64,000 nucleotides of DNA from Thermoplasmatota archaeon (GTDB lineage: Archaea; Thermoplasmatota; E2; DHVEG-1): positions 197,722 through 261,721 of the forward strand of contig JAOZSQ010000001.1 in the NCBI GenBank assembly GCA_029939595.1, read 5' to 3'. The notes under the pieces are model-generated. The model saw only the letters and a list, made by a program, of their open reading frames with translations. It made no database searches and was not told where the DNA came from. Both the position numbers and the translations under genes were made by a program. Shown piece after piece: positions 32,401-53,500 of this stretch (the first letter of the stretch is position 1; each line of letters opens with the position of its first letter).

Positions 32401-35400
32401 TGCAACAAATGTCTGGTTTCTTGAAGGATTTTGGTGGTCAGAAATCGTTTAAAACTGGTGGATTCATTCCTGCGGGTAAGGTTGTTACAGGTGCTACTTT
32501 ACACGGACCTGAGATGGTTATTCCAATGAAAGACCCCAAATTCACTGGTGGACCTCCTGAATCTGCAAGTGGATATAAACGTCTAGCAGAATTGGTAGAA
32601 GTATTTGAACGAATAGATCCAGCGAGTATTCCTAAGTTTATTAAAGGAATGTCTTTGTTATCATCTAATTTAAAGACTTTTAAAAAGTTTGAAGGTGCTA
32701 AAACATTGAAGCATTTGGCTATGTCTGTTGATCCGGTATCTGATATCAAGAAAGTGAAACAAGCTGTTAAAGGTATGAAATTGATAATGAGTAATATTAA
32801 GATGCTTGAAGGAGTTAAAGCGGTTCCGAATCTTAAACAATTATCATATCTTATTCATGCGGTTGGTGATTATGATCAAGTGAGAGCGGCTGTGAGAGCC
32901 TTTGATTTGATTACTCCGAGACTTATTGAACTTGGTAAGATTGAAGGCGCAAAAGAAATGCGAAAGATTTTATATGCTGTTCAAGGTCTTTCTAATGAAG
33001 ATGCGATGTATAGTGTTACCACGAGTCTTGAAATGTTGGTTGGTCAAGTTGATAATATGAAGAAGATAGGAAGTGTTGGGGAATTAACTAATATATCGTA
33101 TGCTGTTGAAGGGTTATCCAATATTAAGAAAACTGGTTTTGCATTACTTAGTATGTTCTTGTTGGCTAAACGAGTGAAGGATTTTAAGGCATTGGAAGGT
33201 GTTGGCGTACTTCAGAATGTGGTGAATGCTGTAGATGGTTTATCTAGTCCAGTTAAAACAGCAATGGCTATTGGTAGTATGTGGATGTTGAGTAAACGAG
33301 TGGATGATTTCAAGAAAATGGAAGTTGTACCAAACTTGTTGAATCTTTCAATGGCGGTTGATGATCTTTCTCAGATTTGGAAAGTAATAAAAATGATTGC
33401 CGGAGTGAAGTTAATTTCTAAATTTATTACCAGTTTCCAGAAACTTCAAGGTATAGGTGAATTAGAAAAGATTGCATATTCGGTGGATAAGTTGTCTCAA
33501 ACAGGAAAAGTGATGAAAATGATTTTCAATGTTTGGGCAATTTCTAAGTTTGTGGGTAGTTTCCAGAAACTTCAAGGTATAGGTGAGTTGGATAATATTG
33601 CGTATTCAATAGACAAATTATCTCAAACCAAGAAAGTAATGAAGATGATTCTCAATATCAAAATGATTAAAAAATTTGCTATTGATGATATGAAAAAGTT
33701 GGCTGCGATTGATGAGTTGAATTCGTTGATAAGAGTGGTTGAAAAGTTATCTCGTTTTGGAAAGGTATTAAAGAGTATTATTGCCATTAAAATGTTGGGT
33801 GGTCAAAAGAAGAGTTTTGAGAAAATCAGAGAAATAAATGAAATAATAAACGGCATACCTCATTTTAAAACAAATATGGCAGTTATTACAGGTATCGGTT
33901 TAGCCAGCCCGTTAATAAAGAAGGCGGTTAAAGTGATTAAATTTATGGGTAAGAATTCCGAAGAAATTAAGAAAGTGAGTGTTCTTAATGCGTTTGATGA
34001 ATTAGGTGATTTCTTTGATGTAGTGAAAAAAGTTGGTGCAATGGGTGTTCTTGGATTTGCTTCTAAATCAATGATTAAAGCGGTTGATGTTGTGAAAGAA
34101 TTGGGAGCGGTCCCAACGTCAGTATTTGAAGATCTTGGCGATAACTTGGCTGTAATATCTAAAACTGAAATTCATTTGTTTAAGTCAATGAAAATAATGG
34201 GTGGATTGGGTTTTTCAAGGAAACTAATAAAGAATGCTATTAAAAGTATTCAAATGTTACAAGATAATAAAGATCTAATAGCCACTCTTGATCAACTCCA
34301 GTTTCCTAAAGATATGAGTAATTTACAAGTATTAATATCATTAGGTGAACAAAAAGATTCTATTGAAAGAGCTATGAAGAGTATTGAAAAACTCAATGAA
34401 AACATGGGTATTATTAAGAGTATTGATATAGAGGCTTTCAATAGGTTAGGCAAGGTATCTGTTGGTGTGCGTGGTTTGGGACAATTAGAACATGTTAATA
34501 AGAATATAAAGGTATTGAAAGGCATTGAGAAAGATGGTGAAACAATAATTCGTGCTTCAGAAATATTGAAGCAAGCCGGATTTACTATTGGTGAATCTAA
34601 AGGTGAAAAGATGGGAGCCAAAGCTGAAGATGTGTTAGCTGGAATGACAGAAAAGGGTGCAAAAGCGAAGGAGAAAGGAAAAGAACTGTTTGATAGTGTT
34701 AAAGGTGTTGATATTAAAGGTAAGGGTACTGAAGCCTATGAAAAAGGTAAAGGATTAGTAGCTGGATTGTTTAAGAAAAAAGAAAAGAAAGTTGAAGAGG
34801 GTTTAACTGGTGCTGCTGATAAAGTGGATAAAATGAAGGAGAAGGGTGATGTAGAAGCTGAACCGAAGGCAGGATTGGGATTTATTGGTGGATTAAAGAA
34901 GAAAGCTTTTGGTTTAATGGATGAAATGAAGACTGTTAAAGAAGAAACCAAAGGCGAGGAGAAGGTAGAAGGGAAAGGATTTTTGGATAAGTTGAAAGAA
35001 CAGAAAGAAGATTTATTAGAGAAAGCTAAAGGTGTAAAAGAGAAGGTAGTTGGTACAGTTACTCCTAAAGAAGAAGAGGTTGGATTTACAACTGGTCGTC
35101 AAGATTTAGATAAAACAATGGAAGGTGGTTATGAAAAGCCATTAAAGAAGAAAGTAGGTGATTTTGTAACTGGTAAAATGCAAGAATTTGGTCTTGGTGA
35201 TCTTACAAAAACTGATAAAAGTAAAGAATTAGTTGGTTATTTGAAAGATAAGAAAAAGGAAGGAGTTGATTATGTAAAAGGTAAAGCGGATGAAGCTGGT
35301 GATAGTTTAGGTTCCAAGAAAGATATAGTAGCAAAATATGTAACGGATCAATATGGTGCGGTTACTAAGGTTGTTGTTGATTACTTTGGCAAATCAAAAG

Positions 35401-38060
35401 AATATACTGTTGAGCAATATAAGAATTTAAGAGAATATGTAGATGCGAAAGTTGAAAGTGTTAAAACTGCGGTTAAACCCAAACCAAAACCAGTGGAAGA
35501 GGTTAAACCGGTAGATGTGGGCGAAGCAAAGGCAGAAGCGGTAGCCAAGAAACAACAAGCCAAAATACTCCAATTTCCAACAGAAGTGGAAGAAGCCAAG
35601 AGAGCTTTACAAGCTAAAAGAGAGGGAATAGAAGTAGTTAAAGCTGATGCTGGTGGTGTGGTTAATGCGGTTAATTCGGAAGAATTGGTATTACCAGGAA
35701 TAGATGGAAAGAATAAGAAGGTTACAGAAGGGTTTGCAAAGACTTTTGGATCAAAGGTAGCTGAATCGGAACCATTTCAAAAGGTAATAGAAATTTCTGG
35801 AGAAAAGACAGCCAGTAATGTGGTTGGATGGTTGGAAAGTCCGATTGGGAAGATAACTGAATGGGTAGAGAGTAAGAGGCAATCTGAAAAGAAAGTGGAA
35901 TCTAGTGTGGGAGATCTTTATCAACAGGAACAAACGAAAAAAGAACATGAACAAGCTGTTGCTCTTGAGTCGGATCGGAAACAGGTTGAATTGGTAGATA
36001 CTATTGAACAAGGTAAAGTTCCACCACCAACAATACAAACAATAGATGCTACAAGAGAAACACAAGCTAGGCATCTTACAATGGAACAAACTAACACTAA
36101 ACGAGTATTGGATAAACTTGAAGGTATGAATGTTGGAACTGCTGCTGGTGCTGGTGCTGGTGGAGATTCTGAAAAGAATAAATTTAATATGCCAGGATTG
36201 CCACCTATACCTCTTCCTTTTGTTAGAAGAAAACCAAAGGTTAAACCAAAACCAAAGGTTAAACCAAAACCAAAGGTTAAACCAAATGTTAAACCAAATG
36301 TTAAACCAAAACCAAAGGGACGATTTAGTTTTAAGAAACCTGTTGCTGGTGCTGTTGCTCCGCCTAAGATCAAGTTAGATGTGCCAAAAGAAGCACCTAA
36401 AGCAAAAGGTGGATGGTTAAGCAAAGCATGGGGTTGGACTAAAAAGGCAGCAGGAAAGGTTGTTAAGTTTGTTAAGAGTGTTGGAAGTTTTCTAAAACAA
36501 GGAAAGAAAACTATAATGAGGTATCTTAAACCAATTGGAAAATATGTTGGTAAATTGGTTGCTGGTTCGGCAAGAGGTCTTGGGAAGTTTGCTAAGAAAA
36601 TACCTTTATTGAGTATTTTGTTTGCGATTTGGGATGGTGTTCAAACGTATAAAGATGCAAGTAAGATGAAAGCCGAAGGTAAGTCTCCACGAACCATTGC
36701 TTTAAAAACTATTCCATCTATAGCAGGTATTGTTGGTGAATTGGTTGGTGGTGCATTAGGAACCTTTTTAGGAACTATTCCTCCACTTACATTTTTTGGT
36801 GGTACTTTTATTGGTGGTCTTCTTGGTGGATTTGGAGGTAAAAAGTTATTTAAATGGTTGTTTGGAATGCCAGCAGTTGCAGGTTGGATTGCTGATGCAA
36901 TGGGATTTACTGAGGCGAATGATGCAGCCTGGAAGAAGGATATGGAAGAAAAGGAAAAGGAAAAATCAGCAGAAACATCTCCTCCTGAAGTGGATATACC
37001 TAAATCGGAAGGAGCAGCAGCACCTCAAGAGGGTACGCCTGTGGATGAGGCTGCGCCTCAAGAGGGTACGGATGCTGAGTTGCCTAATGAAGAACCGGTT
37101 GATGCACCAAAAGAACCAGATATGCCAACGATTCCGAAGATACCAAGTCCTTCTCCTGTGGATAAAGGTGGTGTTTCAATGCAGAGAGGTGGGCTTGTTG
37201 GTGAAGGTGAAACAGTAAATGCAACTTTGCATGGTCCTGAGATAGTTATTCCATTGAAAAAGAAAGATGCAAAGGGTTTAAAAACTGTTCATGGAAAGGG
37301 TACTTTCAAGGAACCAGCTAAGTTTAAAGAACAAGCTCTTCTTCAGTTTAAGAAAATGAAGTTGAGAGGTGTTTCAAAAACAGCATTAGAAAAAGTAATG
37401 GATAGTCATCCTTTATTTAAGAAACATAAAAAATACTTTTTAGAACAGTTATATAATGCAAAAGGAACTAAAAAGAAGGGAACAAGTGGAAAAGTTGGAA
37501 GACCAAAAGGTGGTGTAAAAGCCAAACCAATGCCAGATTTAGGAAAAGTTGTTGTTGGGTCGGCTGGATCTGGAACATTTGGGGCAACTGTTGAAGAAAG
37601 TGTTATTAGTGATGGTAAAGGTGAAACTAAACAAGGATGGGTTAAATCATCAAAGAATGTTCCTGGTGTTGCTAAGAAGTTTTTGATTAATATGATGGAC
37701 AGGATTGATAAAGGTGATAGTTTTTCAGCAGAGGAATCAGATAAGTTCATAAATATGGCATCTCAGTTTGGAGTTCCTTCTAAATATTGGCATTCGGGTT
37801 TGAAGTTAAAAGTACATGATACACAGAAGGCACTCAAACATCAAGCGTTACAAAGAAAGAAAGTAGAAAAGCGAGTGGCGGGTGAAACTTCACGAGTGGA
37901 TGAAGCAGCGGGTAAAGCAAAAATATTGCCGTTTCCAGTTATGCAACCACAAGCTCCTCCACAGGCTCCTCCTCAACCAAGTAGTAATGAGAGTGTAATG
38001 GTTGCAACGGGTGATAAATCATTTGCACATATGTTATATAACATTTATCAATATGGGTAA
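26451..38060 (+). CDS. tail tape-measure protein (3,869 aa)
   Basis: Position after tube and chaperone. Five copies of G-E-A-G-x-E-x-I-V-P-L-like motifs. ~40-aa periodic aromatic/Ala repeats across about 5 kb. K/E coiled coils. C-terminal Gly-rich hydrophobic segments. Confidence 0.7.
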   Translation: MGRDDKINTALEQIIQRLGSLEKTVRENEIRQEEAHKIAVPKERREPIDGVDALLQHQQKEQIKREQLRDKLRKKERTEDFKRETVKDKKEDKRRLAEDIQKKKEKEKEKVETVKDEKKRKKEEYVAERKKQVEDAKVQKEADKAAKKQEKELKKGQKEEDSFLYNSESGSGEGLNLGVNDNQTMFDFGGFGGKDKETGGSKDPIDEPTKPEKKIPETIPKKTEPEKVAPIVKKQTPPKRVTPIARKKVAIDKKVPRKVTEQDDISKKILEEEPIKEPIKEPIKFLAKPVEAETSCLEGLCRASTLIARIDENVRKIGYKVGITHSKIQVAAFAKGGIGNVFLEAGGIVTKPTAMAVTGEAGKEMVIPLKKRSKEKKRFLGEVGQEIDKVIEKRDEKKEEKQEKEKIIDSKEKKKLGFLEERKQAKEAREAAKEADKAAKEVEKDQKEDDFLYEGGGESGEGINFGVNENQTMFDFGGLGDLFKRKPKPDKTDAEKPKPGKLTFEELFPKEKEIPEVVGEPVKKEKLLTFDELFPKQKKQIKKKEPVKKVEKKVEEPVEKTIEKKKRPVKKKEPVEEPVEEPVEEPVEEPVEKAVVAPVPVEKAVVAPVPVEKAVVAPVPVEKAESLIAPPVPIAEGFPCMEALCARVSTIDRIDENVEAINKRFRIPLSKIKKPKVVKFARGGVLDTTMEYGQVFGPGLFPAAQAAVGGVMSGKNPMAVMGDVKEMIVPLDKASKEKKGFIGEIADKIKGLFSRKKKEEVVEPEPAASPLGGIASMIPGGDMIPLDMISQFLPMDQLKGMIPMKKGGIIKKPVVAGEAGDEAIVPLGKGSKEKDAFLDEVSEKLVGKKGDKKISFTMSKIITTGDLNNTALIQEKIIEKKRGKRLFTQTKQTIKFTDRDKLLKKVNAIHNSIINEGGAKGRTEINFPGLADIAYDAFDMNVWGPVIQAIDYLGGVDMVQIGAAIKNAWLIGKSGKAFQCLTSPEFKELAKIDFYGLTGLIEEMARLDSDQIVSATYNAWLLGKISKPLSVLITNKDLQSFLKLNLGEVYNLAILTEELAALHTSDITLASLHAFMLGQSFKHFSTVIDISKHIGDLGSRGLFGFFKTGIFALVDRLSSFKTGDVTRACLHAWMIGKGSQQLVSVAEVMKLKIFSGWREFFGIEDPVSIMVKKLSSLTTSDVTRATLNAFILSQGVRSFKAVEQVSSLGRRFRFFKKKTVVEVLVDVVKQLAEVERSQALRATQVAQGLGMIGANVKTLNEVAKLNRKSFFIAGNTMVKDICDVVSGLSLFNWKDILVFARNTLAIAGTVKFTKDILGVTELTRKSWGLIGDTAIDEITFVVEKLSQFSLKEIGRAVVLATSLGKASPNFMQIIPIAQLGRKFIRKSIIEAIAGVIDVLKEISLRDIVRVTHNVFALGFNAPMFPKMKPIAELMGASHWSGFGNAYITDIGLVLDRMKNWEPDQVRKSALLAGSLGQAAPLYFKMIPISKLAQGSKWWGGSLIIDDISKVLKVLSAYSWSDIARINISALALAMNAPSFARMSIIGLLARPSRFWRKRTIIEEVTTVVNELGKLDQADVRKSAMVAGTLGSPAFKGLATIGELLENESKYIFWEHEGTSTIDKVKQIVGEFKQIDLADVLLAAGKAATLGLLTPQFMKIKLLEPLIAGPRKGFMGQIGDFFLGKEISPIAKAKILVDEFAKIDTTQTALAAVKAVILGKTASSFLAVPDLGRLVAYKYWGFSNRRPVDDLKDAIDGLSEIDPRNAVKAAASAFVIGKGMGNFGELGKGIAGLFKKRFIFFGKTRIEMITDMVERLGKLKPTMVLAAVGALGVVKAALKAFDKGEGGMVMRSITGLKSFFGGIMAFAKGVAGVGIWVLGKVLKRAAKSLAEAQMHMDMVGEISDKLMQKIKDLKEFITVATDFGKVKGAVKSLEYIAKRIDNFADIERLKNLDKIGSAIENLADTKQVKKAVKGMKMIAKNTDQMQQMSGFLKDFGGQKSFKTGGFIPAGKVVTGATLHGPEMVIPMKDPKFTGGPPESASGYKRLAELVEVFERIDPASIPKFIKGMSLLSSNLKTFKKFEGAKTLKHLAMSVDPVSDIKKVKQAVKGMKLIMSNIKMLEGVKAVPNLKQLSYLIHAVGDYDQVRAAVRAFDLITPRLIELGKIEGAKEMRKILYAVQGLSNEDAMYSVTTSLEMLVGQVDNMKKIGSVGELTNISYAVEGLSNIKKTGFALLSMFLLAKRVKDFKALEGVGVLQNVVNAVDGLSSPVKTAMAIGSMWMLSKRVDDFKKMEVVPNLLNLSMAVDDLSQIWKVIKMIAGVKLISKFITSFQKLQGIGELEKIAYSVDKLSQTGKVMKMIFNVWAISKFVGSFQKLQGIGELDNIAYSIDKLSQTKKVMKMILNIKMIKKFAIDDMKKLAAIDELNSLIRVVEKLSRFGKVLKSIIAIKMLGGQKKSFEKIREINEIINGIPHFKTNMAVITGIGLASPLIKKAVKVIKFMGKNSEEIKKVSVLNAFDELGDFFDVVKKVGAMGVLGFASKSMIKAVDVVKELGAVPTSVFEDLGDNLAVISKTEIHLFKSMKIMGGLGFSRKLIKNAIKSIQMLQDNKDLIATLDQLQFPKDMSNLQVLISLGEQKDSIERAMKSIEKLNENMGIIKSIDIEAFNRLGKVSVGVRGLGQLEHVNKNIKVLKGIEKDGETIIRASEILKQAGFTIGESKGEKMGAKAEDVLAGMTEKGAKAKEKGKELFDSVKGVDIKGKGTEAYEKGKGLVAGLFKKKEKKVEEGLTGAADKVDKMKEKGDVEAEPKAGLGFIGGLKKKAFGLMDEMKTVKEETKGEEKVEGKGFLDKLKEQKEDLLEKAKGVKEKVVGTVTPKEEEVGFTTGRQDLDKTMEGGYEKPLKKKVGDFVTGKMQEFGLGDLTKTDKSKELVGYLKDKKKEGVDYVKGKADEAGDSLGSKKDIVAKYVTDQYGAVTKVVVDYFGKSKEYTVEQYKNLREYVDAKVESVKTAVKPKPKPVEEVKPVDVGEAKAEAVAKKQQAKILQFPTEVEEAKRALQAKREGIEVVKADAGGVVNAVNSEELVLPGIDGKNKKVTEGFAKTFGSKVAESEPFQKVIEISGEKTASNVVGWLESPIGKITEWVESKRQSEKKVESSVGDLYQQEQTKKEHEQAVALESDRKQVELVDTIEQGKVPPPTIQTIDATRETQARHLTMEQTNTKRVLDKLEGMNVGTAAGAGAGGDSEKNKFNMPGLPPIPLPFVRRKPKVKPKPKVKPKPKVKPNVKPNVKPKPKGRFSFKKPVAGAVAPPKIKLDVPKEAPKAKGGWLSKAWGWTKKAAGKVVKFVKSVGSFLKQGKKTIMRYLKPIGKYVGKLVAGSARGLGKFAKKIPLLSILFAIWDGVQTYKDASKMKAEGKSPRTIALKTIPSIAGIVGELVGGALGTFLGTIPPLTFFGGTFIGGLLGGFGGKKLFKWLFGMPAVAGWIADAMGFTEANDAAWKKDMEEKEKEKSAETSPPEVDIPKSEGAAAPQEGTPVDEAAPQEGTDAELPNEEPVDAPKEPDMPTIPKIPSPSPVDKGGVSMQRGGLVGEGETVNATLHGPEIVIPLKKKDAKGLKTVHGKGTFKEPAKFKEQALLQFKKMKLRGVSKTALEKVMDSHPLFKKHKKYFLEQLYNAKGTKKKGTSGKVGRPKGGVKAKPMPDLGKVVVGSAGSGTFGATVEESVISDGKGETKQGWVKSSKNVPGVAKKFLINMMDRIDKGDSFSAEESDKFINMASQFGVPSKYWHSGLKLKVHDTQKALKHQALQRKKVEKRVAGETSRVDEAAGKAKILPFPVMQPQAPPQAPPQPSSNESVMVATGDKSFAHMLYNIYQYG
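28167..28316 (+). repeat. in-frame tandem repeats: 12 bp x4 (EPVE) then 30 bp x3 (KAVVAPVPVE), inside the tape-measure gene
   Basis: Direct inspection. Confidence 0.7.
36229..36318 (+). repeat. in-frame 15/18-bp tandem repeats encoding (KPKPKV)n, inside the tape-measure gene
   Basis: Direct inspection. Confidence 0.7.
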
Positions 38061-38063
38061 GAT

Positions 38064-39560
38064 ATGACAACAATTTTAAGATATCCATTAGAACCAGAAG
38101 TGGCGGATGCTTATCCTCATTTAAAATTTGAGGCATTTACTTATGGTATGCCCAAACCGGATGGATCTTCTGGAAACGAGTCAAGTACACAGGAGAAGGA
38201 AGGTGTAATGTTGAAAGTAGGGGCTAAGTTGGTTGAGATACGAACTTATATTCCGCCTAGTGCAATGAAAAATGCTGTAAGTTCTGATTGGCAATTGGAA
38301 GATGCTATGTTGGTTGGTAGTAAAACATTGGATCAATTAACAAGTTTTAAAGGAATAGTAGATTTAGCGGAAGGATTTGTACAATCAATTGATTTATCTG
38401 GAATGGCACAAACATTAGTAAATAACAATAAATATATTAAATTAGGTGCAGGGTTTATGAATACCATTTCTTCCTCAATGGGTAAGACTCAGATGCCTAG
38501 TAAAATTCCTATTTTTAAAGGTACTCAATTACATAATCCTCAATTTCAATTTGATTTTGATCCTTATAGTTTGAATGAAGCGAAAGAGGTTAATACAATA
38601 GTGAAGATGTTTGAAGCATTAGCAAAACCAATAATGAACAAAATGACATTGGCAAAATTGGGTGCTGCATTTGGTACTAGTGGTCCTATGGGCGCACTTA
38701 TAAAAAAGGCAACAAGTTATTTAACCAGGGGTATTATATTTTTAGATTTTCCACCTTTATGGAAAATTACTGTAATGGATGGTTCTAGTAGTGATCCAGT
38801 TACCAATTTTATGTATGATAAATCGGATTATTATGCAATAACAACTGTTGATTCAACAGCGGGTGAAGGTGCTGAATATAATTATTTTCATGGAAAAGCA
38901 AAATATCCAGTTAAAACAAATTTAAGTGTTACATTTCAGTCTATGTATCCACCACGACACAAAGACAAACAACCAAGTAAAGCGGATAGTTGGCCTGGAG
39001 GCGCAAAGGAAAGATGGCCACAAATAGTGAAACATATTGCGACATTATATGAAGGAGGAAATACTACTGAAACAATGACGAATAAAGGTATTGCTTCGGT
39101 TACTAGGAGATTGCCAAGGTCAACATCTCAATATAGGTCAAGAGGTGCAAATACATCAACCCCAACTGCTGGAACTAATACTTCAAGTGGAGCTAATCAA
39201 GGTGGAGCTAATCAAGGTGGAGCTAATCAAGGTGGAGCTAATCAAGGTGGAGCTAATCAACCAAATGCTAATCAACCAAATGCTAATCAACCAAATGCTA
39301 ATCAACCAAATACGGGTGCAGGAGCTACAGCCCAACAAGGTGATGGTACTACTCAAGAACAGAATCAGCAACCAAATCCTGATAATAATCCAGTGGTTGA
39401 TCAAGCGAATGCAAATGCTGCAAATACGGCAAAAGGTAGAACAACAAGTTATTCTTCAAGTTCGGGTTCAAGTGATGAAGAAATGAGTGCTGAAGAAGCT
39501 AAAGCTAAAGCTAAAGAGGCTGCTCTTGAAGAAGCTTGGAGAAATCAAACTGGTATGTAA
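38064..39560 (+). CDS. tail/baseplate protein following the tape measure (possible Mu gp43-like), with GANQ/ANQPN tandem repeats and an acidic tail
   Basis: Position. N-terminal YPHLKFEAFTYGMPKP loosely resembles Mu gp43 HLQPASFRGVPF. Repeats at 39189-39312. Confidence 0.35.
   Translation: MTTILRYPLEPEVADAYPHLKFEAFTYGMPKPDGSSGNESSTQEKEGVMLKVGAKLVEIRTYIPPSAMKNAVSSDWQLEDAMLVGSKTLDQLTSFKGIVDLAEGFVQSIDLSGMAQTLVNNNKYIKLGAGFMNTISSSMGKTQMPSKIPIFKGTQLHNPQFQFDFDPYSLNEAKEVNTIVKMFEALAKPIMNKMTLAKLGAAFGTSGPMGALIKKATSYLTRGIIFLDFPPLWKITVMDGSSSDPVTNFMYDKSDYYAITTVDSTAGEGAEYNYFHGKAKYPVKTNLSVTFQSMYPPRHKDKQPSKADSWPGGAKERWPQIVKHIATLYEGGNTTETMTNKGIASVTRRLPRSTSQYRSRGANTSTPTAGTNTSSGANQGGANQGGANQGGANQGGANQPNANQPNANQPNANQPNTGAGATAQQGDGTTQEQNQQPNPDNNPVVDQANANAANTAKGRTTSYSSSSGSSDEEMSAEEAKAKAKEAALEEAWRNQTGM
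39189..39312 (+). repeat. in-frame 15-bp tandem repeats (ggagctaatcaaggt x5; gctaatcaaccaaat x4)
   Basis: Direct inspection. Confidence 0.7.
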
Positions 39561-40098: not shown

Positions 40099-41469
40099 AT
40101 GGCTGAAAGTAGTTCTCCAGATATTAATTTTTCCATTGTTGGTATAGTTATTGGCGGTGAAGATAGAGGTGTTATTATTAACCCCAAAGACAGTCCAATT
40201 GAAAGGTTGGAATTCTTTGAGAGTTTAACTTTTCCAGGAATTACTGGAAATTTGGTTTTTAAAGATGATCAAGGTGCATTGGAATTAGGAAACAAAGCCG
40301 GAGCGTTGGTAACGGCTGGAGATGAAATTATGATAAGTTTCCGAGCCAAAGAACAATCGCCTATTACAGTTAAATATACTATTTATGCTATTCAAGAAAT
40401 GCCAATGACGAGTGCAAAAGCAATTCTTTCTAGTGTTTCTTTTTGTTCTACATGGGTTTATGAAGCCTTTACACGTAAAGAACCGATTAAATTTTGTAAT
40501 GATGAAGAACCTTTTACTATTAGCTCTATTGTAAGTAAAATTATTAAGGAATGTGGAGGTGAGACTAAAAATTCAACTACTCCCTCTATTATTAAAAAAA
40601 CATTAGATAAACAGATTGAAAGATTTCTTTCACCTTTTTGGACACCAATACAAACAATTAAATATTTTATGGATTTTGCTTTAAGTCAGGATACTTATGG
40701 TGGATATGTTATTTGGACCAATTTTAAACAACCAACTCCAGGAAAAGAAATAGTTAATTTTGCACCCATTTCTTATTTTTTTGGTGATGAAAAAGAGAAT
40801 GATGATGAGGGATTACCAAAGGGTTCTTCAATGTGTAAAGGCATTTTGAGAATTGGTGGAGAAAATCCAGATGCTAGTCAAAACGATATAAAATCATTCA
40901 ATCCAGAAAAAGGCGTAGATGATTTTAAATTTGCTAATTTGGGGGCTTCTAATTCAAAAATTTGTGGTTTTGATTTTGATAGGACAAAACGGGTGGAAAT
41001 TGATACCGGATTATTAAATTATAAACACCCTCATTTTGGCACCAAATTCCCTCTTATAAAGAAATTTAATAAAACGGAATATCGGAGTATTAAACAAACT
41101 ACTTTGTACCCTCAGACTACGTATTTGATTGAAAATGAGGAAAATGTAAAGGACATGTTGAAGGGAAAATTATTTACTAAATATTCTTTATTATTTGCAG
41201 ATTTTTTTGTTATAAATGTCCAGTTATTTGGTGAAATGACTGATCGGGAAGTTGGGAAAAAGATCATGTTATTGGTTCCTTCTATTGATGAACATATGAA
41301 AGGTAAACCCAACAGGAAATATAGTGGAACCTATATTATAAGAAATATAAGGCATGTAATGGCATCAGGAAAATATTATCATTTTGCAACTTTAATATCG
41401 GATGGTTATAAAGAAATCCAAGACGGAGCGGAGGACCCTGATTTGACTTTGATGAGGTGGAAAACATAA
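40099..41469 (+). CDS. baseplate hub candidate (P2 gpD / Mu gp44 position)
   Basis: Gene order TMP-(gp43-like)-X-hub-spike. No motif-level confirmation. Confidence 0.4.
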   Translation: MAESSSPDINFSIVGIVIGGEDRGVIINPKDSPIERLEFFESLTFPGITGNLVFKDDQGALELGNKAGALVTAGDEIMISFRAKEQSPITVKYTIYAIQEMPMTSAKAILSSVSFCSTWVYEAFTRKEPIKFCNDEEPFTISSIVSKIIKECGGETKNSTTPSIIKKTLDKQIERFLSPFWTPIQTIKYFMDFALSQDTYGGYVIWTNFKQPTPGKEIVNFAPISYFFGDEKENDDEGLPKGSSMCKGILRIGGENPDASQNDIKSFNPEKGVDDFKFANLGASNSKICGFDFDRTKRVEIDTGLLNYKHPHFGTKFPLIKKFNKTEYRSIKQTTLYPQTTYLIENEENVKDMLKGKLFTKYSLLFADFFVINVQLFGEMTDREVGKKIMLLVPSIDEHMKGKPNRKYSGTYIIRNIRHVMASGKYYHFATLISDGYKEIQDGAEDPDLTLMRWKT

Positions 41470-41777
41470 TGTTACAAAAAGAAATAGCTTTATTTGATAA
41501 TAATATAACATTAGAAGGAATATATATCGGTGAGGTGATAAGTGGTAAAGATCCAAAAATGAGGGGAAGAGCTTTAGTACGTATAATTGGGTTGCATGAT
41601 TTTGAAGACGAGGACGAATCTAATAGTATTTGGGCTGAAATGTGTAGTCCAACCCAACATGGTTTTGAGGCACCGGAGATTGGGAATTTTGTTTATATAA
41701 TGTTTCGTAGTAAGTTTGACCCAAGTTCGGCAATTTATTTGGGTTATGTTAATAGTAATTTTGTGGATGGCATATAA
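41457..41777 (+). CDS. central spike N-terminal OB-fold domain protein (gpV / gp5 N-terminal-like)
   Basis: GIYIGEVISGKDPKMRGRALVRI......SIWAEMCSPTQHGFEAPEIGNFVYIMFRSKFDPSSAIYLGYV matches the gpV/gp5 OB-domain pattern (G.V...D....RvrV......S.W.r...p.aG...g....PevGdeV.V.F..GD...P...G). Confidence 0.6.
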   Translation: MENIMLQKEIALFDNNITLEGIYIGEVISGKDPKMRGRALVRIIGLHDFEDEDESNSIWAEMCSPTQHGFEAPEIGNFVYIMFRSKFDPSSAIYLGYVNSNFVDGI

Positions 41778-43390
41778 TGGCAGAAAAAACGGCAGAAGAG
41801 TGGGAAACCCTTTGGGGTAAACGAATGTACGGAGAGTCAAATCTTCCAAGATATAATCAAGTAAATTATATTTTGAAGGAGACTACAGGGGATAGGTATG
41901 TCACTCGTGCGGCGACAGAGAAGATACGAATGACAAGTCCAGGTAATTTGGCTGAAGTAAAAGATGCTGAAGATGTAATGTTGATTAATGTCAAATATAG
42001 TTTGGCAAAAGGCGAAACAAAGGCAGTTGTTCTTAAACCAAGTTCGGTTACATTGAAAGAGAAGGCGGGAACCGGTAACTTAGGAGTTTATGAAAATGTA
42101 AAAACTATTTTTGATACACCGGAGGGGTTTGTTTTTTATATTGACAGATCAAAAAACGAGTTTGAAACGGGGGATTCGGGTAAGAATAGGAATTATAGGA
42201 TTTATTTAAGGCATCCAGCGGGAACTTATGTTAATATTGCCGATTCGGGAGAATATACCAGAAAAGTAATGACCAATTCATTTGATTTTATTACTGGTGA
42301 TATGAATATTGGTGTTAAAAAGAATTACAATTTGGTTGCTGATGAAGAGATTAGAATAAATGCTGGAAGACATCATTATTTATCAATTGCTGGAAATAGT
42401 GTTTATGATACAAAAGGTAGACTTTATATAAGTGCTGGTGGTAATATGCTTTCACATTGTCATGCTGATTCAAGGGAAATAGTTGATGGTGCAAAGATGG
42501 GTTTTTATGGTTCAGATTTATATCAAGAGGCTTCGGGTATTATTACCATTTATGGTAAGAAGAAAGTTATTATTAAAACAGACGAATTAGAAGATCATTC
42601 AAATAGAAAAATATTAAAGATTAAAGGTAATATTAAGGAGACTGTTGCGGGTCATAGAACGATAGGATCTGATCAAATGACAATTACTTCAACTGGTACT
42701 GGTGGTTCGTTTAATGTGATGTCTGGTGGTAAGTATACTGCGGTTGTTCAAGGAGCGTATCAACAAGAGATTATGAACATGTATCCTTATCCTGAGTTAC
42801 CTTATTCGTTTTCAAGGAAGTTGACTGCTGGCGGGAAGAAAGAGGATTTTGTGTTGCCGTGTATGGTTGACAGAAATTTCATGTTAGCAACAGCTTGTAC
42901 AGATACATGGTTATTAGCAGGAACTTATAAAGCCAATTTTTTAGTAGCTGGTTCTTGGGCTGTTGAGACAACTTTGGGTACGATTGATTTGAAAACTAAA
43001 GTTGGTAAAATTGGTATAGAAGCGTTGGTTGGCGAAGTAAAAGCATCTAATAAAATTGGTGAAGTAAAAATTGATGCATTGGGAAATGTTCAAATGAAGA
43101 ATAAAGGTGGTGAAATAAAGGTTCATTCGCCATTACCAGAAATTGAGTTAAAGAATAAATCTAAAGGGAAAATAAAGATAGATATGATGGGTAAGATAAA
43201 AATGGAAGCATCTATACCGATGAAAGGAATTGAGTTGGGTAAAGCAACAAAAGACCAATCGGTTTATGGGAAATTGCTTATAAAATATTTATCAACACAT
43301 TTTCATGGAACAGGTGTTGGACCAAGTTCACCACCGGTTGTTCCACCAAATCCGATGGAATTGTTGAGTAAGTTGGTTTGGATTGAATAG
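41777..43390 (+). CDS. central spike beta-helical / apex protein (separate gene, coupled TAATG to the OB-domain gene)
   Basis: Repetitive Gly/Val-rich beta-strand periodicity. C-terminal THFHGTGVGP (HxH) resembles the metal-binding apex of gp5/gp138-type spikes. Confidence 0.45.
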   Translation: MAEKTAEEWETLWGKRMYGESNLPRYNQVNYILKETTGDRYVTRAATEKIRMTSPGNLAEVKDAEDVMLINVKYSLAKGETKAVVLKPSSVTLKEKAGTGNLGVYENVKTIFDTPEGFVFYIDRSKNEFETGDSGKNRNYRIYLRHPAGTYVNIADSGEYTRKVMTNSFDFITGDMNIGVKKNYNLVADEEIRINAGRHHYLSIAGNSVYDTKGRLYISAGGNMLSHCHADSREIVDGAKMGFYGSDLYQEASGIITIYGKKKVIIKTDELEDHSNRKILKIKGNIKETVAGHRTIGSDQMTITSTGTGGSFNVMSGGKYTAVVQGAYQQEIMNMYPYPELPYSFSRKLTAGGKKEDFVLPCMVDRNFMLATACTDTWLLAGTYKANFLVAGSWAVETTLGTIDLKTKVGKIGIEALVGEVKASNKIGEVKIDALGNVQMKNKGGEIKVHSPLPEIELKNKSKGKIKIDMMGKIKMEASIPMKGIELGKATKDQSVYGKLLIKYLSTHFHGTGVGPSSPPVVPPNPMELLSKLVWIE

Positions 43391-43399
43391 GAGGTTATT

Positions 43400-43594
43400 A
43401 TGCTTTCTTCAGCCAAAGACGGAATCAAAGAAAAACTTGACCAAATATTGAAAAAATTAGAAAAAATGGAGGGACATTGTGTTTTTTGTATTGAGGCAGA
43501 AGCACAAATGGAAGTTGTTGAGGAAGAAAATAAAAAATTAAAAAGATTTTGTCAGATATATAAAAAAAAGATAAAAGAGTTGGAATCCAACTAG
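43400..43594 (+). CDS. small coiled-coil protein with a CxxC pair
   Basis: ORF with AGGAGG SD. Confidence 0.3.
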   Translation: MLSSAKDGIKEKLDQILKKLEKMEGHCVFCIEAEAQMEVVEEENKKLKRFCQIYKKKIKELESN

Positions 43595-43638
43595 TATAAA
43601 TAGTGTTATATTTGTTAATTTTAAAAAAGGAGAAAATT

Positions 43639-44139
43639 ATGTTTAGATTTTTTATGGTTTTGTCATTTTTACTTATTCCATTTGTTTGTTTTGCTGAAGC
43701 AGCCCAACAGTCAATGGGAAATACACTTGTTGCTGTCGTATCAGTAATTGCAACGGTTGCAGCACTTATTATTGGTTATCTTGGCAAGTTTGGTTTGGTT
43801 AATCCACAAAAAGCAGCCGAATTAAAAGGAAAATTGGATGCTGCGGAAAAGATGGTAAAAGATGGTGCAGAGGCAATTGACAAGGTTGTTGATACTGTTG
43901 AAAAGTTGGGACTTGTTGATAGTGCTAAAATAGATGAAATAACCAATTCTGTAAGTGAGTTAGATCTTGTGGAAAAGGCACAACAAACTGAAAAATTAGT
44001 TCAAGAAGGAGCTAAAGTTTTGGATGATGTTCTTGAGGTTGTTGATAAGATTGGGACACCGAATGCCGATATTGTTGGAACAGCAAATGAGTTAAGTAAA
44101 GCAGCAGGAAACTTTTTATCTGGCAAGTTAAAAATTTGA
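43639..44139 (+). CDS. secreted/membrane-anchored coiled-coil protein (start moved to ATG 43639 with AAGGAGA SD; the track start 43603 is GTG)
   Basis: MFRFFMVLSFLLIPFVCFA signal-like segment, then TM helix LVAVVSVIATVAALIIGYLG. Confidence 0.4.
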   Translation: MFRFFMVLSFLLIPFVCFAEAAQQSMGNTLVAVVSVIATVAALIIGYLGKFGLVNPQKAAELKGKLDAAEKMVKDGAEAIDKVVDTVEKLGLVDSAKIDEITNSVSELDLVEKAQQTEKLVQEGAKVLDDVLEVVDKIGTPNADIVGTANELSKAAGNFLSGKLKI

Positions 44140-44450
44140 AAGGATTATATATTATCCAGTTTGGAAAGAAAGGATTTAAAAATTTTCTTACAAATTGCGG
44201 GCTGACAGAAGAAAGCTTTGAACAAATACTAAATGTCAGTTTAAAAGATATTGATATAAGCAATCTTTATTGGCAAGTTGATTGGACAAATGATCAAGAA
44301 GCTGTTGGTGATACTGAGCTTATTAAAGTTGCTGATGGTTATTATAATGAGTTATTCAGAATTGAACAACTTCCTGCTTATAAGTCTGCTCAAAGAGGTA
44401 TTTATTATATTGATGTGGACGTATTTAATGAAAAATTTGAAATGGAGTAG
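44136..44450 (+). CDS. hypothetical protein (no ATG in frame; TTG start overlapping the upstream stop)
   Basis: Open frame only. Low confidence. Confidence 0.25.
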   Translation: MKGLYIIQFGKKGFKNFLTNCGLTEESFEQILNVSLKDIDISNLYWQVDWTNDQEAVGDTELIKVADGYYNELFRIEQLPAYKSAQRGIYYIDVDVFNEKFEME

Positions 44451-45173: not shown

Positions 45174-48100
45174 ATGACGTGGGAAAAGAAAGAATTTACT
45201 ATTGAGTTACTAGCAGATCCAAAAGTATCTCAATTATTAGATAAGCTTGAAACGCTAGGTGAAACAATAGTAACAATTGGTGAGATCATCAAAGCTCTTG
45301 CCGAACTCTATAAAATTTATCTTCTTAGTAGTATCAATCCTATCCTTGCTGCACTATATCTTCTTATTAAATTAATAAAAGAATTTATTGAAAGTCTCAA
45401 TCAAGTGGCTGTTCATGGTATTATTATGCTTCCTGGTTTAACTGGTGGATTGGGAACATTTTATACGTTTGGGGAGTTGAAATTAATGTATACTCCAAAG
45501 GTTTTTGGGGTTGAACAAGGAAATAGGAAAAAAGTTGAGCGTTTTATTGATGGTGCCGGATGGAAAGATTGGATGGAACCTGCATCAATTGAGTCTCTCA
45601 AATCAAAGTTAGTAGAACAATATGTTAATCATGGCTCTTCTATTTTTAATGTTCAGTCTGTTATTCAAGAGAATGGACGTTCAAAAGTGGCGGTAACGGA
45701 GGCTAACCGATGGTTGGATGCCAAATCAAAACAATCAGGTGAAGGTATATGGTTTTGTAATAAAGATGAACTTGGAGCGGCTTTTTTAGATTCTTTTACT
45801 GATTCTGAAGATCCATGTAGACCTAAAATGGATGATCATAGAATGTCATCTTCTTTAACCTTGTTTTTTGGAATAGGAGGAAAACTTGAAGCTATAAAAA
45901 TAGATGAAATTGTTGATTTGATTAATAAGGTTATGAAGTTGATTGGTAAACTAATGGATATGGACAGTTTTACCAAAGCAGCCGAGGCTGAAATCAAGAA
46001 AATGGAGACTACCTATAAGAAAATGCAAGGTAAAGATGCTCTTGAAATTCAGTACGAAAAAGATACGAAAGAAATGGAGGAGCGTCACGCTACAGAAATT
46101 GCTACTGCTAAAGGCGAAGGGGTGATGGATGAGAAGACCAAAGATGCGGATGGTCAGGAAATCACAAAACGAAAGTGGATGGAAAATCAAAGGAAAATAA
46201 TTGATAAAGATAATTGTTTACCATCTGCTGATGCCGAGGAATTTGAAGAACTTGCTCCTCAAGATTATGCTACACCGGTTACTTATTATGTTGAAGGTGT
46301 TAGATTAGATTCTGATGCTGATGATGAATGGGCTGGTAGCGAAATGACTGTACTTCAAAAGTCAGAAAATGGACAATTATCCCCACCTAAAACTAAAGCT
46401 GAAGCCGATAAACAAAAGAAAGCAATAGATATAGCGAAGAAAAAAAGGCAAACAAAAATTGACACATTAGAAAAAACAAGAAAAGCCCTAGAGAAAACAG
46501 AAAAAGCAGCAGCAGCCCAAGGTGCAAAAGATTTAGAAGCAATGAGAAAACGCCATAAGGCTGAAAAGAAGACTTTAGATGATAAATTTGCTGCTGACCA
46601 AAAAGCCAAAATAGCCAATGAACAAGCTTCAAAGAAAGCCGATGTTAAAAAAGAGTTAACATTAGAATCATTAGAAAATTCCTTGTTTGCTGGTGATTGG
46701 GTATCCTATCCCCTACTTCCTGATCTTATGCCATTTGTAGAACCAATTTTTGCCCAAATTTATGCCTATTTGGATGGTATGGCAGAATTGATTGCTGGTG
46801 CTGTTGCAATGATAGATGCTATGATAGCTTTGTTGGATGAAAAAATAGCAATAGTTAAAGAAATATTAGCTATTATTAAATTATTAAAAGCTTTAATTTC
46901 TGCATTAAATTCATTAAAAGGTGGAGCAGGTATTTATTGTCATTATCTCCCAATGGCTCCAGGAGGGGCAGCACGACTTAAAAGTAGTATTGGTACTGCT
47001 TGGGAAGAGTTACCAGCAATTTATAGTGAACCGATTAGTATATGTGGATGTCTTTGTTTTTGTGATATGGGTCCAGGAACGGAGTTACTTGCATTTGTTC
47101 TTGGTTTAAAACCCAATTATAATCCATTGGATTATATTGCTATTTGGTTCAGTTATATTGAAGATTTAATGAAGATTCGTGAAGTTGGAATGGGAATTTG
47201 GGATAAATTAATGAATGCCATTCAAGGTGCTATGAATCTTTTGAATGATACTTTAGCCGCTCTTGAAGCTATTTTAGCTCAATTAAAAAAGATAATCAGT
47301 ATTACTAAAGATATTTTAAAGGATATAATTAGTGTTGTTAAACATCCAGTTGATTTGCAAGGAAAAGCAGCCATTAAAGGTAAGTTGGGTGATAATAGAT
47401 TGGGGGCACTATCTCCTAAAGAAAAAGAAGTACAAATTGGTCAGTTACAAGACGAAATAATTGAAGAAGATTTTAAAGAGTTGTCGGATGCCGAGGTTGA
47501 GGAAAAGTCAAAAGAGAAAGTCGGTGCTGAATATGATGATATGACAGATAATGAAAAAGAAGATTTAAAAGAAGATTTAAAAGAGGATATGAAAATTGAT
47601 AAATTCAGTGACATGTCTGAAGAGGAAATGGATGATTTATTAAAAGAAAAATTGGGTGAAGAAGCATTTAATGGTCTGTCAGATGAAGAGAAGGATTTTG
47701 TTTTTCAAGATATTTTAAATGAGAAAATGGATAGTGCGTTGGATAAACTTGAAATGGAATTAGCAGGATCTCTTGAATTTAAATCTCCAAAAGCAGTTTC
47801 TATTATTGAAAGAGATGTTGATGGTGATAAAGAGAAAGTTAATGTATTACTTAAAGAATTGAAAAAAGATATATTATCCGATTTAACAGAACTTGGAAGA
47901 GACGTTGCTGAGAAAGTAATAGATAAACTGGAGAAGGTTATCAAACAAATGCTTGAGGATACTAAAGAAGACAGTTTGATGATGCAACAGTTGTTAAAAG
48001 ATATGCTTCATGAATGTTTTCTTAAAGTATTCTCGTATTTAAATAAGCAAAAATTGATAGATATTTTGTTGATTTTGATAAAAGGATGTTTGGATGATAT

Positions 48101-50504: not shown

Positions 50505-50511
50505 GGAATAT

Positions 50512-53500
50512 ATGGCATCAATTAAAGAAGAAAAAAATAAGTGTAAAACAACAATACGAAGTGGTGCAATGGGTGTTGTTGATGGACGAATAATAATGAT
50601 TGATAGGATAGAAACATTCAATGAATTTCTTCCTAAACTTTTGCCCTTATATAATGATACCTATTCTTGGATAACTAAATTTGGGCAGATGCGAAACCTA
50701 TTAAGAGGTTATGAAAATCCCAACGATTCACTTCACACATTCAATATATCTTCCAGAAAAAATGTGGTTCCTCATTATTTTACTCTTCCAAAATGTAATT
50801 CTTTTTGTTTCAGTTCTTTTGATAGTCCAGATTTATACACCGCAGGACCATATGTTTTAACCACAGAAGAAGCAACAAAATGTTATGTAACTGTGAGACG
50901 TAAAGATAATAAAATAGTTGTAACTCAAGATGAAGACCATTTGGATGCATGGTATACACCAGAATTAATAAAAGATTTTAGATTTCAAGTTGGTTCTTGT
51001 GAACAACTTGTAACTGTATTTGAGAAAAAAATAGAAACGAAGAATAAATTCTTTTTTACAAAAATTGTATTGATGAAAGATAAAAAAGAAATAAAAGATT
51101 TGGGTTCTTTTGATGAAAATGGTAAATTTGTTCATCCAGATATAGATTATGAGAATACTGTTTTTAGTGAAACTCTAACAGAAAAAAATATAAAGGTGGT
51201 ATTTAAAAATGCAATAAATGATGATGTTACTGTAGCCATAAAATATAGAATAGTTCAAAAGGAAATTAGTGAAGGTGTTGGAACTTTAAATGAACTGGAA
51301 AAAGGGGAAACATTTACTTTTAAATTGGGCACTGATCCAGTAAAAGGCACAATAAAAGTGTTATTGGGAGAAGAAATAATAGGAACGATAGATGAAAAGG
51401 GGTTTGTATCGGGTTCTCTTGTTGAAAAAGATTCTAGTTTCAATGTTAATAATAATACGTTGTATTTGGTGTTTGATAAAAAATATAAAGCAGGAAAAAT
51501 GGATAGTGTTTTTGTTAAATATGAAATTTTTACACCGGATCAGTATGTAGAAGTTGGTAATTTTTCTATTTTACCAAAAGAATTTGAAATGGATTTGCAA
51601 CATGATACAATAATCAAAGGAACTAGTAAAATTTACAAAGAATATGACGATGATAATGTTGTTTATTTGGGTTCGGTTGATGAGAATGAAAATGTTATTG
51701 CAACAAATGAACTATTAGATGCAACTGCTTGTGTTTTTGATACTAAAACAAAGAAGTTAAAAATAGTTTTAAAAGAAACTGAAAATATAGATTATGATAT
51801 TGCTTTACGTTATAATTTTCTTGATCAATATCATGAATGGCATAAAGACTTTTTTCAGGTAGCATTTACAGTTGAATCAATAACTTATTTGGGTAATAGG
51901 CAAATGTCTTTTATGAGATTGAATCTTGATAAACCGATTGATTATATGTTTCCAACTGAGCCAAAGAATGAATCGGATACACCATTGGTTGTAGAAAGAC
52001 CAATGTTGGGTTCAAGTTTCCAGGTGAATAGTATTGAAACAAGGAAAATTGTTGCTAGGATTCAAGTGTTAGCTGAAGGATTGGAGTTGAATCATGGTTG
52101 GCATATAATTAAAGATAGAGAGTTTGATTGTACTTCTGTTAATAAGGTTGGTTTTAGAAAATTGGCGAATTTAATCAATTTTGAGATTGTGAATAAGGAT
52201 GATATTTATAAAGCAATACTTGCTTTGTCATATCCATTAAATGCAGAAGCAAACCCATTTTATCCTATGAATGAGGGAAAATGGTTGTTGCCCAATCCTT
52301 TTTTTGGTAAGTATATAAGGTACGTTCCTTTGATAGATATACAGTTGGCTGAGAAAGCTAATCAACCCGCAGATGTTGTTGATTTTGATTTTATTGCTGA
52401 TAATTTATTGTCACCTATATGTTTATCTCATACCGATTTGAGATGGATGGCAGAACGATTTGATTATAAAATTGATTGTAGGGAGGCTATTAACGCCAAT
52501 CTGAAGAGTTATGGTTGGAAAACTTATGAAGAGATGCCACCCGAAGCAAAACCTTATTATTTTCCTTTATTTAAAGAAGAAATATTACAAGATAAGGAAG
52601 AAGCTTTGTACCATACCGATTTAAAGTATAATGTGATTGATAAATTTAGCAAACGGCATGATACTTATATTATGGCTCAACTTCAAAAGATTGTCGGTTT
52701 TGCATTTGAAGATCCTCTTCCATCAATAGATTTTGCTATTGAAGAAGAAACATATATTGAAAATAAAGTTGGTGAAGAGCAAGATTTTGATGCATATTTT
52801 GAGAAAAATAATGAGCGAATTGAAAACAATGAAGGTCCAGATCCATTGGTTAATTGTATGTTCTTGAATTCGGGAATTACAGATGCTAAGAATAAGGAAA
52901 AAAGTAAATTTGTGACTTTATTGGAAGAAGAAATGTTCGTTGGATTGACTTTAGACGAACCAGCTATTTCCTTATTGGAAATACCTCATTTATGCAGAGA
53001 AGAAATTGAAGAAATAATTGCTGATAAAAATTTGGAAGCCTGGAGAGCAGATATAGAGGGTTGTTCAACCAAAGAAGAGTTTGTTAGGTTGCTATCAAAA
53101 CTTATTGTTATGAGATTAACTGACGATGAATTTGTCTCATTTATAGATCATAATAATTTGTTTATAAATCCCAATGCTTTTATAGATAGTGAACGGACAG
53201 AGAAGGAGGGATTGACACGTTATCGGGTAGGAGAACTACAACATACAATATTACAAGAATTGGGTTTGGCGGGTGCATTGAGGCATATATCATTTGAAGA
53301 AATTGAATATCTTGATGTAATTCAGCTTGAGCAAATGTTGAAAGATCGGGGTTATGTTTCTTTTAAAGATAAGTATATGGAAAATTGGGAAGGCGATCCG
53401 ATGCCGGAGGATTTGAGTAAATTAGAATATGTAGAACAATACTTTTTAAATGAAAAACAATATAGACATGCAGTTAAAAAAATATTGAAGTATACACATA

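Follow-up and report, generated by a model that had tools for sequence, protein, structure and literature searches.

A probable two-gene central spike, with separate OB-fold and β-helix genes, in the T4-type baseplate operon of a large uncultured phage

Introduction

Contractile injection systems are described as having a spike complex built from a hub, a spike with an oligonucleotide/oligosaccharide-binding (OB) fold and a β-helix, and optionally a tip; the known states of fusion run from VgrG, in which hub and spike are one chain, to P2, in which spike and tip are one chain. In phage T4, cleavage of the spike protein gp5 at Ser351/Ala352 yields gp5* and gp5C, and the outcome is a (gp27-gp5*-gp5C)3 complex whose chains are held together non-covalently (PMC3004832). 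A His-x-His (HxH) motif close to the C-terminal end marks an Fe-binding apex domain, and spikes with an HxH apex have been proposed to be without a tip protein, whereas T4 gp5 and VgrG, which are without HxH, carry PAAR (10.1101/2023.02.25.529910; PMC12407873). Here we describe a locus at which OB fold and β-helix appear to be encoded by two adjacent genes, A and B. It lies in a stretch of 64 kilobases (kb), hereafter the window, which comprises positions 197,722 to 261,721 of contig JAOZSQ010000001.1 (assembly GCA_029939595.1) and thus 15% of this contig of ∼427 kb. The contig is that of a large uncultured phage; the window is AT-rich (G+C ∼33%).

Results

Gene A, a stand-alone OB-fold protein

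Genes A and B are part of a T4-type tail and baseplate operon. Pfam and PHROG searches gave the gene order gp48-like tube cap, gp53-like wedge, hub-like protein of 456 amino acids (aa), A and B. The same module contains a gp6-like wedge protein (PHROG 219, E=2e-69) as well as a tail tube protein and, from the T4_baseplate family, a baseplate hub protein. The features of the two-gene spike are:

41467–41471, + strand: TAATG stop/start overlap between the hub-like gene and the OB gene (sequence read directly)
41469–41777, + strand: gene A, predicted stand-alone spike OB-fold adapter of 102 aa, or 106 aa from GTG 41457 (PHROG 430, Phage_base_V, hhalign)
41775–41779, + strand: TAATG stop/start overlap between the OB gene and the β-helix gene (sequence read directly)
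41777–43390, + strand: gene B, β-helical central spike protein with integral apex, 537 aa (PHROG 430, phmmer, Foldseek, 55 homologues)

Mechanical calling of open reading frames (ORFs) placed A from GTG 41457 to 41777, which gives the 106 aa of the initial annotation; an ATG is found 12 bases inside, at 41469. The sequence GAGGTGG lies 8 nucleotides (nt) upstream of this ATG, the gene caller of an independent Logan assembly chose the same start (102 aa), and the start lines up with the N-termini of eight A homologues. ATG 41469 is therefore the likelier start; the separate OB-fold gene of the initial annotation stands, with a probable length of 102 aa.

Protein A matched profile positions 6–107 (of 868) of PHROG 430, ‘baseplate hub subunit and tail lysozyme’, with E=1.2e-8. 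The match to Pfam Phage_base_V (PF04717) covered positions 1–73 of the 75 in the model and scored 18.1 bits (E=0.0036; cutoff 23.8); the stand-alone OB proteins of relatives L007 and L008 scored below the cutoff or at noise level. A family of six members, that is, A and five stand-alone homologues adjoining B homologues, was aligned by hhalign with the OB N-termini of twelve canonical spikes, which yielded a probability of 98.4% (E=9e-15, 86 columns). The identity of A to the OB proteins of five relatives plus L017 and L018 was 35–43%; the OB protein of L015 was recognised from its translation. Because of the PHROG 430 match and the hhalign alignment to canonical spike OB domains, A is assigned, at the level of sequence profiles, as a spike OB-fold adapter.

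Gene B, a β-helical needle

The ATG of B overlaps the TAA of A, and the frame of B is shut by a TAA nine codons upstream of the ATG. The TAATG that the initial annotation had taken for a sign of translational coupling at this junction is thus present, and recurs where the stop codon of the hub-like gene overlaps the start of A. Because the hub-like gene, A and B are joined by such overlaps, equimolar synthesis of the three proteins is favoured.

Similarity of B to T4-type spikes was detected by several methods. Residues 140–323 matched positions 357–531 of PHROG 430 (E=4e-11); the profile is thus common to A and B, with the match of B lying ∼250 profile positions beyond that of A. A phmmer search of the Protein Data Bank (PDB) aligned residues 133–209 with residues 405–480 of T4 gp5, the start of gp5C (E=0.004). 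By tblastn, B matched gp5 of the S16 and Cronus types, and residues 141–213 were 38% identical to residues 169–240 of gp208 from Pseudomonas phage pf16. B alone gave no Pfam Gp5 match and nothing above Pfam cutoffs; the family member P0004 scored above the cutoff of Gp5_trimer_C. A match of B to Pfam DUF5036 (E=0.005) was below cutoff and was treated as noise from the repetitive β-strand region. An exhaustive HMMER search with B yielded 55 homologues. When B, and then the family alignment, served as query in a word-indexed protein search, hardly anything but B itself came back; B was assigned there to a contig of 426,929 bp. Scans of IMG/VR with either B or the hub-like protein yielded no relatives. 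Neither A nor B contains a lysozyme or other enzymatic domain recognised by Pfam, PHROGs or NCBIfam, and no lysozyme came to light in the window.

Full-length B was modelled as a monomer by AlphaFold2 (AF2) on a family alignment of 15 sequences. The mean predicted local distance difference test (pLDDT) score was 56; residues 150–310 reached 70–90 and formed an extended corkscrew devoid of intra-chain sheets, which is how one strand of an intertwined triple helix would look. When this model was compared with the PDB by Foldseek, the top six matches were T4 gp5 (1K28, 1WTH, 2Z6B, 9MKB) and the central spike of Klebsiella phage KP1 (E-values of 8e-6 to 3.5e-5, probability 1.0); VgrG, spikes of extracellular contractile injection systems, P1 gp5, the R2 pyocin spike and P2 gpV ranked lower. 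Autocorrelation of the residues showed a period of ∼8 in residues 130–330 and of ∼9 in residues 395–500. Because of the PHROG 430, tblastn, phmmer, pf16, AF2 and Foldseek evidence, together with the Gp5_trimer_C match of P0004, B is a triple-stranded β-helix of the gp5C type. The gp5 matches in sequence and by Foldseek and the repeat period agree in this respect with the initial annotation, and place B within the gp5 spikes and not in an unrelated family. The description of the 537-aa protein as β-helical does not extend to its first ∼130 residues. The chain is divided as follows:

41777–42175, + strand: N-terminal region of B, residues 1–133 (family motif ES-x-x-(S/P)-(R/K)-x-x-Q and β-hairpins; family alignment A2)
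42176–42781, + strand: gp5C-like β-helix, residues ∼134–335 (gp5 sequence matches, AF2, lag-8 autocorrelation)
42782–42952, + strand: phage-specific, Cys-containing insertion, residues ∼336–392 (alignment A2, AF2)
42953–43231, + strand: distal β-helix, residues ∼393–485, with G-x-hydrophobic repeats of ∼9 residues (lag-9 autocorrelation, AF2)
43232–43387, + strand: apex module, residues ∼486–537, consisting of helix 498–507, HFH 508–510, GTGVGPSSPP and a terminal strand (homologues, AF2, Foldseek)

Residues 1–133 match nothing in Pfam, PHROGs or NCBIfam. AF2 confidence was low for residues 1–62, and strands were predicted at 64–126. The first ∼130 residues of B are a lineage-specific N-terminal region, for which we propose a role as docking region for the OB trimer. 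The Cys-containing insertion of ∼57 residues, modelled with a pLDDT of 23–45, is present in none of the 14 family members aligned in A2 and may form a side loop or small domain on the needle. A second AF2 run, again as a monomer, used the last 146 residues of B with 40 aligned sequences; the distal helix was composed of regular short strands (pLDDT 56–83). Scaling from T4 (∼187 residues per 110 Å), the ∼300 helix residues of B would make a needle of very roughly 170 Å.

The apex of B

The C-terminal sequence of B is ...YLSTHFHGTGVGPSSPPVVPPNPMELLSKLVWIE, in which H508 (codon 43298–43300) and H510 (codon 43304–43306) form the HxH motif, with 27 residues following it. Among the matches listed, 43 B homologues have HxH at 29–31 residues from the C-terminus. 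Many of the 55 homologues match only the last ∼50 residues of B, at their own C-termini and with 40–57% identity, and the variant is widespread in metagenomes. The consensus of the module is LG-x-x-L-x-x-WL-x-THTH-x-TGVGPS-x-PP-x-x-PP-x-P-x-x-LS-x-x-VK. No variation was seen at either histidine, at G515 or at P516 across the 40 aligned sequences of the module, and both histidines are at least 90% conserved in alignment A2. The carriers P0021, P0028 and P0044 are ordinary spikes of ∼300 aa with Phage_base_V OB domains (E-values of ∼1e-17 to 1e-18), and P0026 has a Gp5_OB (PF06714) domain. Since several carriers are thus ordinary spikes with confident OB domains, the module is a standard spike terminus.

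In the C-terminal AF2 model the apex module had a pLDDT of 84–95, with the order strand, helix 498–507, HFH, loop, short helix and terminal strand. Foldseek matched this model to a PhiTE baseplate chain (9cuy_Y) with a probability of 1.0 but a statistically weak E-value of 0.016, and to phi92 gp138 (3pqh) with a probability of 1.0 and a root-mean-square deviation of 1.8 Å over 61 columns, but with weak E-values of 0.1–0.5. The C-terminus of P2 gpV, ...LHTHKHPGDSGGTTGSPL, likewise has HxH, after which come 12 residues, with a Gly-rich stretch and a proline. By its HxH motif, the apex of B is of the P2 gpV/phi92 gp138/R-pyocin type and not of the T4 gp5/VgrG type. The initial annotation had likened it to gp5, gp138 and VgrG together; the conserved HxH module agrees with gp138, whereas gp5 and VgrG are without HxH and are sharpened by PAAR.

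Conservation of the split

The core B family (P0002–P0015, P0020 and P0033; 410–490 aa) aligns end to end with B, and none of its members has an OB domain. The genomic context was inspected for ten members of the B family. A stand-alone OB gene of 102–136 aa was found immediately upstream of the helix gene in nine distinct metagenomic genomes (the window, L007, L008, L009/L010, L011/L012, L013, L015/L016, L017 and L018), and on contigs that are long enough, hub-like and gp53-like genes precede the OB gene. The gaps between the OB and helix genes, measured in the window and in loci L007–L011 and L013, were −1, 0, 1, 1, 32 and 117 nt, with frame offsets of 0, 1 and 2 and with TAA or TAG as stop codon. 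L015 has two extra genes between the hub-like and OB genes, and its OB gene still abuts the helix gene. Since gaps, frame offsets and stop codons vary among the genomes, an assembly error or a shared programmed frameshift is excluded; the split is real, old and conserved across the clade.

Fused relatives with the same apex exist as well (P0006, P0016, P0022, P0026 and P0027). In 50,697 deposited phage genomes, tblastn detected no stand-alone OB gene and no full-length member of the B family: there was no match for the stand-alone OB protein of a relative and none for P0010, the 60 C-terminal residues of B gave nothing useful, and P0028, a canonical spike with the same apex, was matched only through its OB domain. 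The label ‘5_2’ in Aeromonas phage avDM2 was considered as a split gp5 and rejected, as it belongs to a single gene of 600 aa. The split-spike lineage is for now known only from metagenomes.

The hub-like gene and the upstream part of the operon

40099–41469, + strand: probable baseplate hub, the equivalent of gp27, 456 aa (PHROG 350 ‘tail protein’, E=5.6e-33; position)

The 456-aa protein takes the place of pf16 gp207, between the gp53-like and gp5-like genes, and a hub-like gene occupies the equivalent position in relatives L008, L009, L011, L015, L017 and L018. It gave no Pfam or PDB sequence match, and a search of the PDB with the hub-family profile gave nothing meaningful; by its position it is a probable hub. 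NCBIfam returned no matches for A, B, the hub-like protein or the 222-aa protein described below. A scan for promoters and terminators around the genes yielded nothing above the background of shuffled sequences, and the tight packing of the genes is consistent with a single operon.

Further upstream, a 3869-aa ORF (26451–38060, + strand) occupies the position of the tape measure (gp29): upstream of it come the T4_baseplate-family hub gene and a small ORF, and downstream the gp48-like gene. No Pfam match was found for it; in relatives the proteins at this position are 796–1292 aa long, and at least 1413 aa in one. A tape measure spans ∼1.5 Å per residue; if the ORF is a true ruler on this scale, the tail would be several hundred nanometres long. 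The gp48-like protein (38064–39560, + strand) has a low-complexity C-terminal extension at residues ∼370–420, with tandem GANQ/PNANQ repeats and an acidic, Ser-rich tail. A 64-aa ORF at 4373–4567 (+ strand) matches Hfq below threshold (E=1e-4; 22 bits, cutoff 27).

PAAR search and the genes downstream of the spike

At E≤0.01 none of 37 small ORFs in the window matched the Pfam PAAR model (PF05488), nor did any of the four ORFs directly downstream of B at E≤1. A scan of the six frames of the window for PAAR-like motifs gave only three matches, each single and isolated and each outside the small ORFs near the spike, and the Pfam annotations of the loci of relatives, including the 17-kb L011 and L012, contained no PAAR. 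The scan covered the 64-kb window, 15% of the ∼427-kb contig, and in this range it agrees with the initial annotation, which had recognised no PAAR gene. The absence is expected, since spikes with an HxH apex have been proposed to carry no separate tip (10.1101/2023.02.25.529910; PMC12407873).

44454–45122, + strand: conserved spike-adjacent gene, 222 aa, A/G/P/T-rich with Cys (blastp to the spike-adjacent genes of relatives)

The 222-aa protein matched the product of the gene abutting the spike gene in L008 with E=1e-8 (blastp), and more weakly those in L007, L011 and L005. The counterparts (L008:9371–9982, L011:9408–10046, L007:1952–2746, L005:1708–2196 and L009:3852–4343) directly abut the 3′ end of the helix gene. 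No match was found in Pfam, PHROGs, NCBIfam or the PDB. The CP...PAAP and CGGH...P patches suggested a divergent PAAR protein, which was rejected as there was no Pfam or PDB support. It may act as a chaperone or an unrecognised tip, or else be a spike-associated or ejected membrane-active protein; it is possibly an accessory, and at most a candidate part of the spike.

The spike gene and the 222-aa gene are separated by three small ORFs (43400–44450, + strand), where the relatives examined have none: one of 64 aa, coiled-coil-like; one of 166/178 aa, with an N-terminal hydrophobic segment and a weak match to an Rz-like spanin (E=0.002); and one of 104 aa. Downstream of the spike region follow ORFs of 1776 aa (45174–50504, + strand) and 1358 aa (50473–54549, + strand), with no PHROG match and only a borderline match to MgtE_N. 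The 1776-aa protein has acidic and Leu/Lys-rich repetitive stretches; the genes of relatives at this place encode 1045–1148 aa.

Discussion

The reading and its alternatives

We conclude, with a probability of roughly 0.85, that A and B together form the membrane-piercing spike at the centre of a T4-type contractile-tail baseplate, in which a spike that is otherwise one chain has been divided in two. The initial annotation had proposed such a split into OB and β-helix genes, and synteny, PHROG 430, hhalign, Foldseek and the nine genomes bear it out. The fold class and homology of the two proteins, the organisation of the genes and the conservation of their split are observations; how the parts would act together is taken up below.

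Several findings weigh against this conclusion. Neither A nor B alone reaches the Pfam gathering cutoffs; the AF2 model of full-length B is poor overall (mean pLDDT 56) and is that of a monomer rather than a trimer; and the hub assignment depends on position and a generic PHROG label. In L005/L006, which are short contigs, the gene upstream of the spike is not OB-like. As for the apex, the Foldseek E-values of the fragment are weak (0.016–0.5), the family member P0009 is without the apex histidines, and a PDB search with a sequence profile of the module brings up no solved structure, so that for this variant, with its preceding helix and its tail of 27 residues, no experimentally solved representative is detectable by sequence. 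The apex of P2 is dispensable in the laboratory (10.1101/2023.02.25.529910), and given this, the histidine cage may not be essential.

The alternative that survives best, and which we nevertheless regard as unlikely, is that B is a spike but is capped by an unrecognised tip or cargo, either the 222-aa protein or the product of a PAAR gene elsewhere in the ∼427-kb genome. The spike-adjacent 222-aa gene is conserved across relatives, the PAAR search covered the 64 kb of the window, and the motif is followed by 27 residues in B versus 12 in P2 gpV, so that the geometry could differ; the lack of apex histidines in P0009 points the same way. Set against these points are the published rule that HxH spikes are without tips (PMC12407873), the absence of a PAAR Pfam match from the window and from the 17-kb relatives L011 and L012, and the absence of a PAAR signature from the 222-aa protein.

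That the split is not biological, and results from an indel in sequencing or assembly or from a programmed frameshift or readthrough giving one OB-helix fusion, is very improbable. Upstream of the ATG, the frame of B stays open for just eight codons, and the ORFs would be fused by a single indel in ∼27 nt; L011 and L007 have both genes in the same frame, and readthrough of the stop would fuse them. However, the independent Logan assembly contains the identical 537-aa protein with a separate 102-aa gene directly upstream, and the nine distinct genomes display the split with gaps of −1, 0, 1, 32 and 117 nt, all three frame offsets and differing stops. Moreover, every B homologue has its own start codon, and the varied junctions preclude a shared slippery site. 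It is just as hard to believe that B is a tail fibre or tailspike with HxH as a fibre-type iron site keeping the chains of the trimer in register: such sites do occur along many phage fibres (10.1101/2023.02.25.529910; PMC12407873), the weak Foldseek matches of B include gp37-like fibres and B has no Pfam match above cutoffs, but gp5 spikes are its best matches in sequence and structure, its gene directly follows the hub-like and OB genes, its HxH is at a fixed distance from the C-terminus, and the same apex module ends proteins with confident N-terminal Phage_base_V or Gp5_OB domains.

A possible mechanism

For a central spike made of A and B, we infer an assembly along the following lines. 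A trimer of A would be seated on a hub trimer formed by the upstream 456-aa protein. B would trimerise into a gp5C-like intertwined β-helix that ends in its own apex. By analogy with T4, P2 and phi92, the three HxH motifs (H508 and H510) could build a cage of six histidines around a metal ion and so stiffen the tip; the ion caged in the apex of P2 gpV and phi92 gp138 is Fe. The N-terminal region of B probably docks non-covalently on the OB trimer, and the resulting complex would then have nine chains, (hub)3(OB)3(helix)3, a presumed stoichiometry analogous to that of mature T4 (gp27-gp5*-gp5C)3. Contraction of the sheath would drive the needle through the outer membrane, and the non-covalent joint between OB fold and helix may let the needle fall away.

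Whether the split is itself functional is a more tentative matter, and the following proposal is possible rather than probable: a non-covalent break point would shed the whole needle of helix and apex into the periplasm, no proteolytic maturation being required; needles of different length or tip could be exchanged as cassettes on a constant hub/OB platform; and the A/G/P-rich spike-adjacent gene could encode a new spike-associated, membrane-active or cargo protein.

Comparison with known systems

The two-gene spike is a conserved variant of a well-known device, whose parts and likely mechanism are familiar. To the states of fusion in the cited spike literature the clade adds one that is absent from it, in which one gene product supplies the OB fold and another the helix, the latter with the tip fused to it. 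The OB/helix junction accordingly need not be covalent during assembly, a state that T4 reaches only after proteolysis, and the clade offers a natural system for studying the nucleation of a triple β-helix on an OB trimer. As most OB genes of 102 aa and helix genes of 410–540 aa go undetected by Pfam and NCBIfam, annotation of uncultured phages of this kind, this ∼427-kb contig among them, would overlook or mislabel the spike.

VgrG of the type VI secretion system, with its PAAR protein, has the same architecture of hub, OB fold and β-helix and is among the structural matches of B. It represents the opposite extreme, as hub, OB fold and helix are in one chain and the tip is the separate PAAR protein.

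The closest synteny in a cultured phage is that of gp207/gp208 of pf16 (Chakrabartyvirus), where a gp53-like gene, the hub-like gp207 (23% identity to the 456-aa protein) and the spike follow each other. Like B, gp208 (‘baseplate hub subunit and tail lysozyme’) has HxH, as HIH, after a short helix; unlike B, it is one gene with the OB fold fused and a short β-helix. In gp208 (L004:7179–8711) the HIH lies mid-protein and the chain continues into a C-terminal domain that by eye is peptidoglycan-peptidase-like (SAFRAGSGTSQHLKGEAVDI). Because gp208 continues past HIH, the apex motif is not always the physical end of the chain.

P2 gpV and phi92 gp138, and also the R2 pyocin spike, share with B an HxH near the C-terminus that is followed by a Gly/Pro-rich stretch (in P2, HTHKHPGDSGGTTGSPL), and none of these three spikes needs a separate tip. 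They have OB fold, helix and apex in one chain of ∼200–250 aa, whereas the OB fold is a separate gene here. The apex variant of B is further distinguished by its helix, the motif THxH-x-TGVGPS-x-PP and the 27-residue tail, and its metal binding is a prediction from sequence.

Mature T4 gp5, as (gp27-gp5*-gp5C)3, resembles the two-gene spike in its T4-type operon, in the combination of an OB adapter with a triple-stranded β-helix, and in detectable similarity of sequence and structure. It differs in that a single precursor of 575 aa is cleaved, instead of two genes being present; in that gp5* has a lysozyme domain, which neither A nor B has; and in that gp5 has no HxH, its cap being the PAAR protein gp5.4, in contrast to the HxH apex that B has of its own. 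B also has ∼130 extra N-terminal residues and the insertion of ∼57 residues. Overall, A and B amount to a genetic version of the gp5*/gp5C split of T4.

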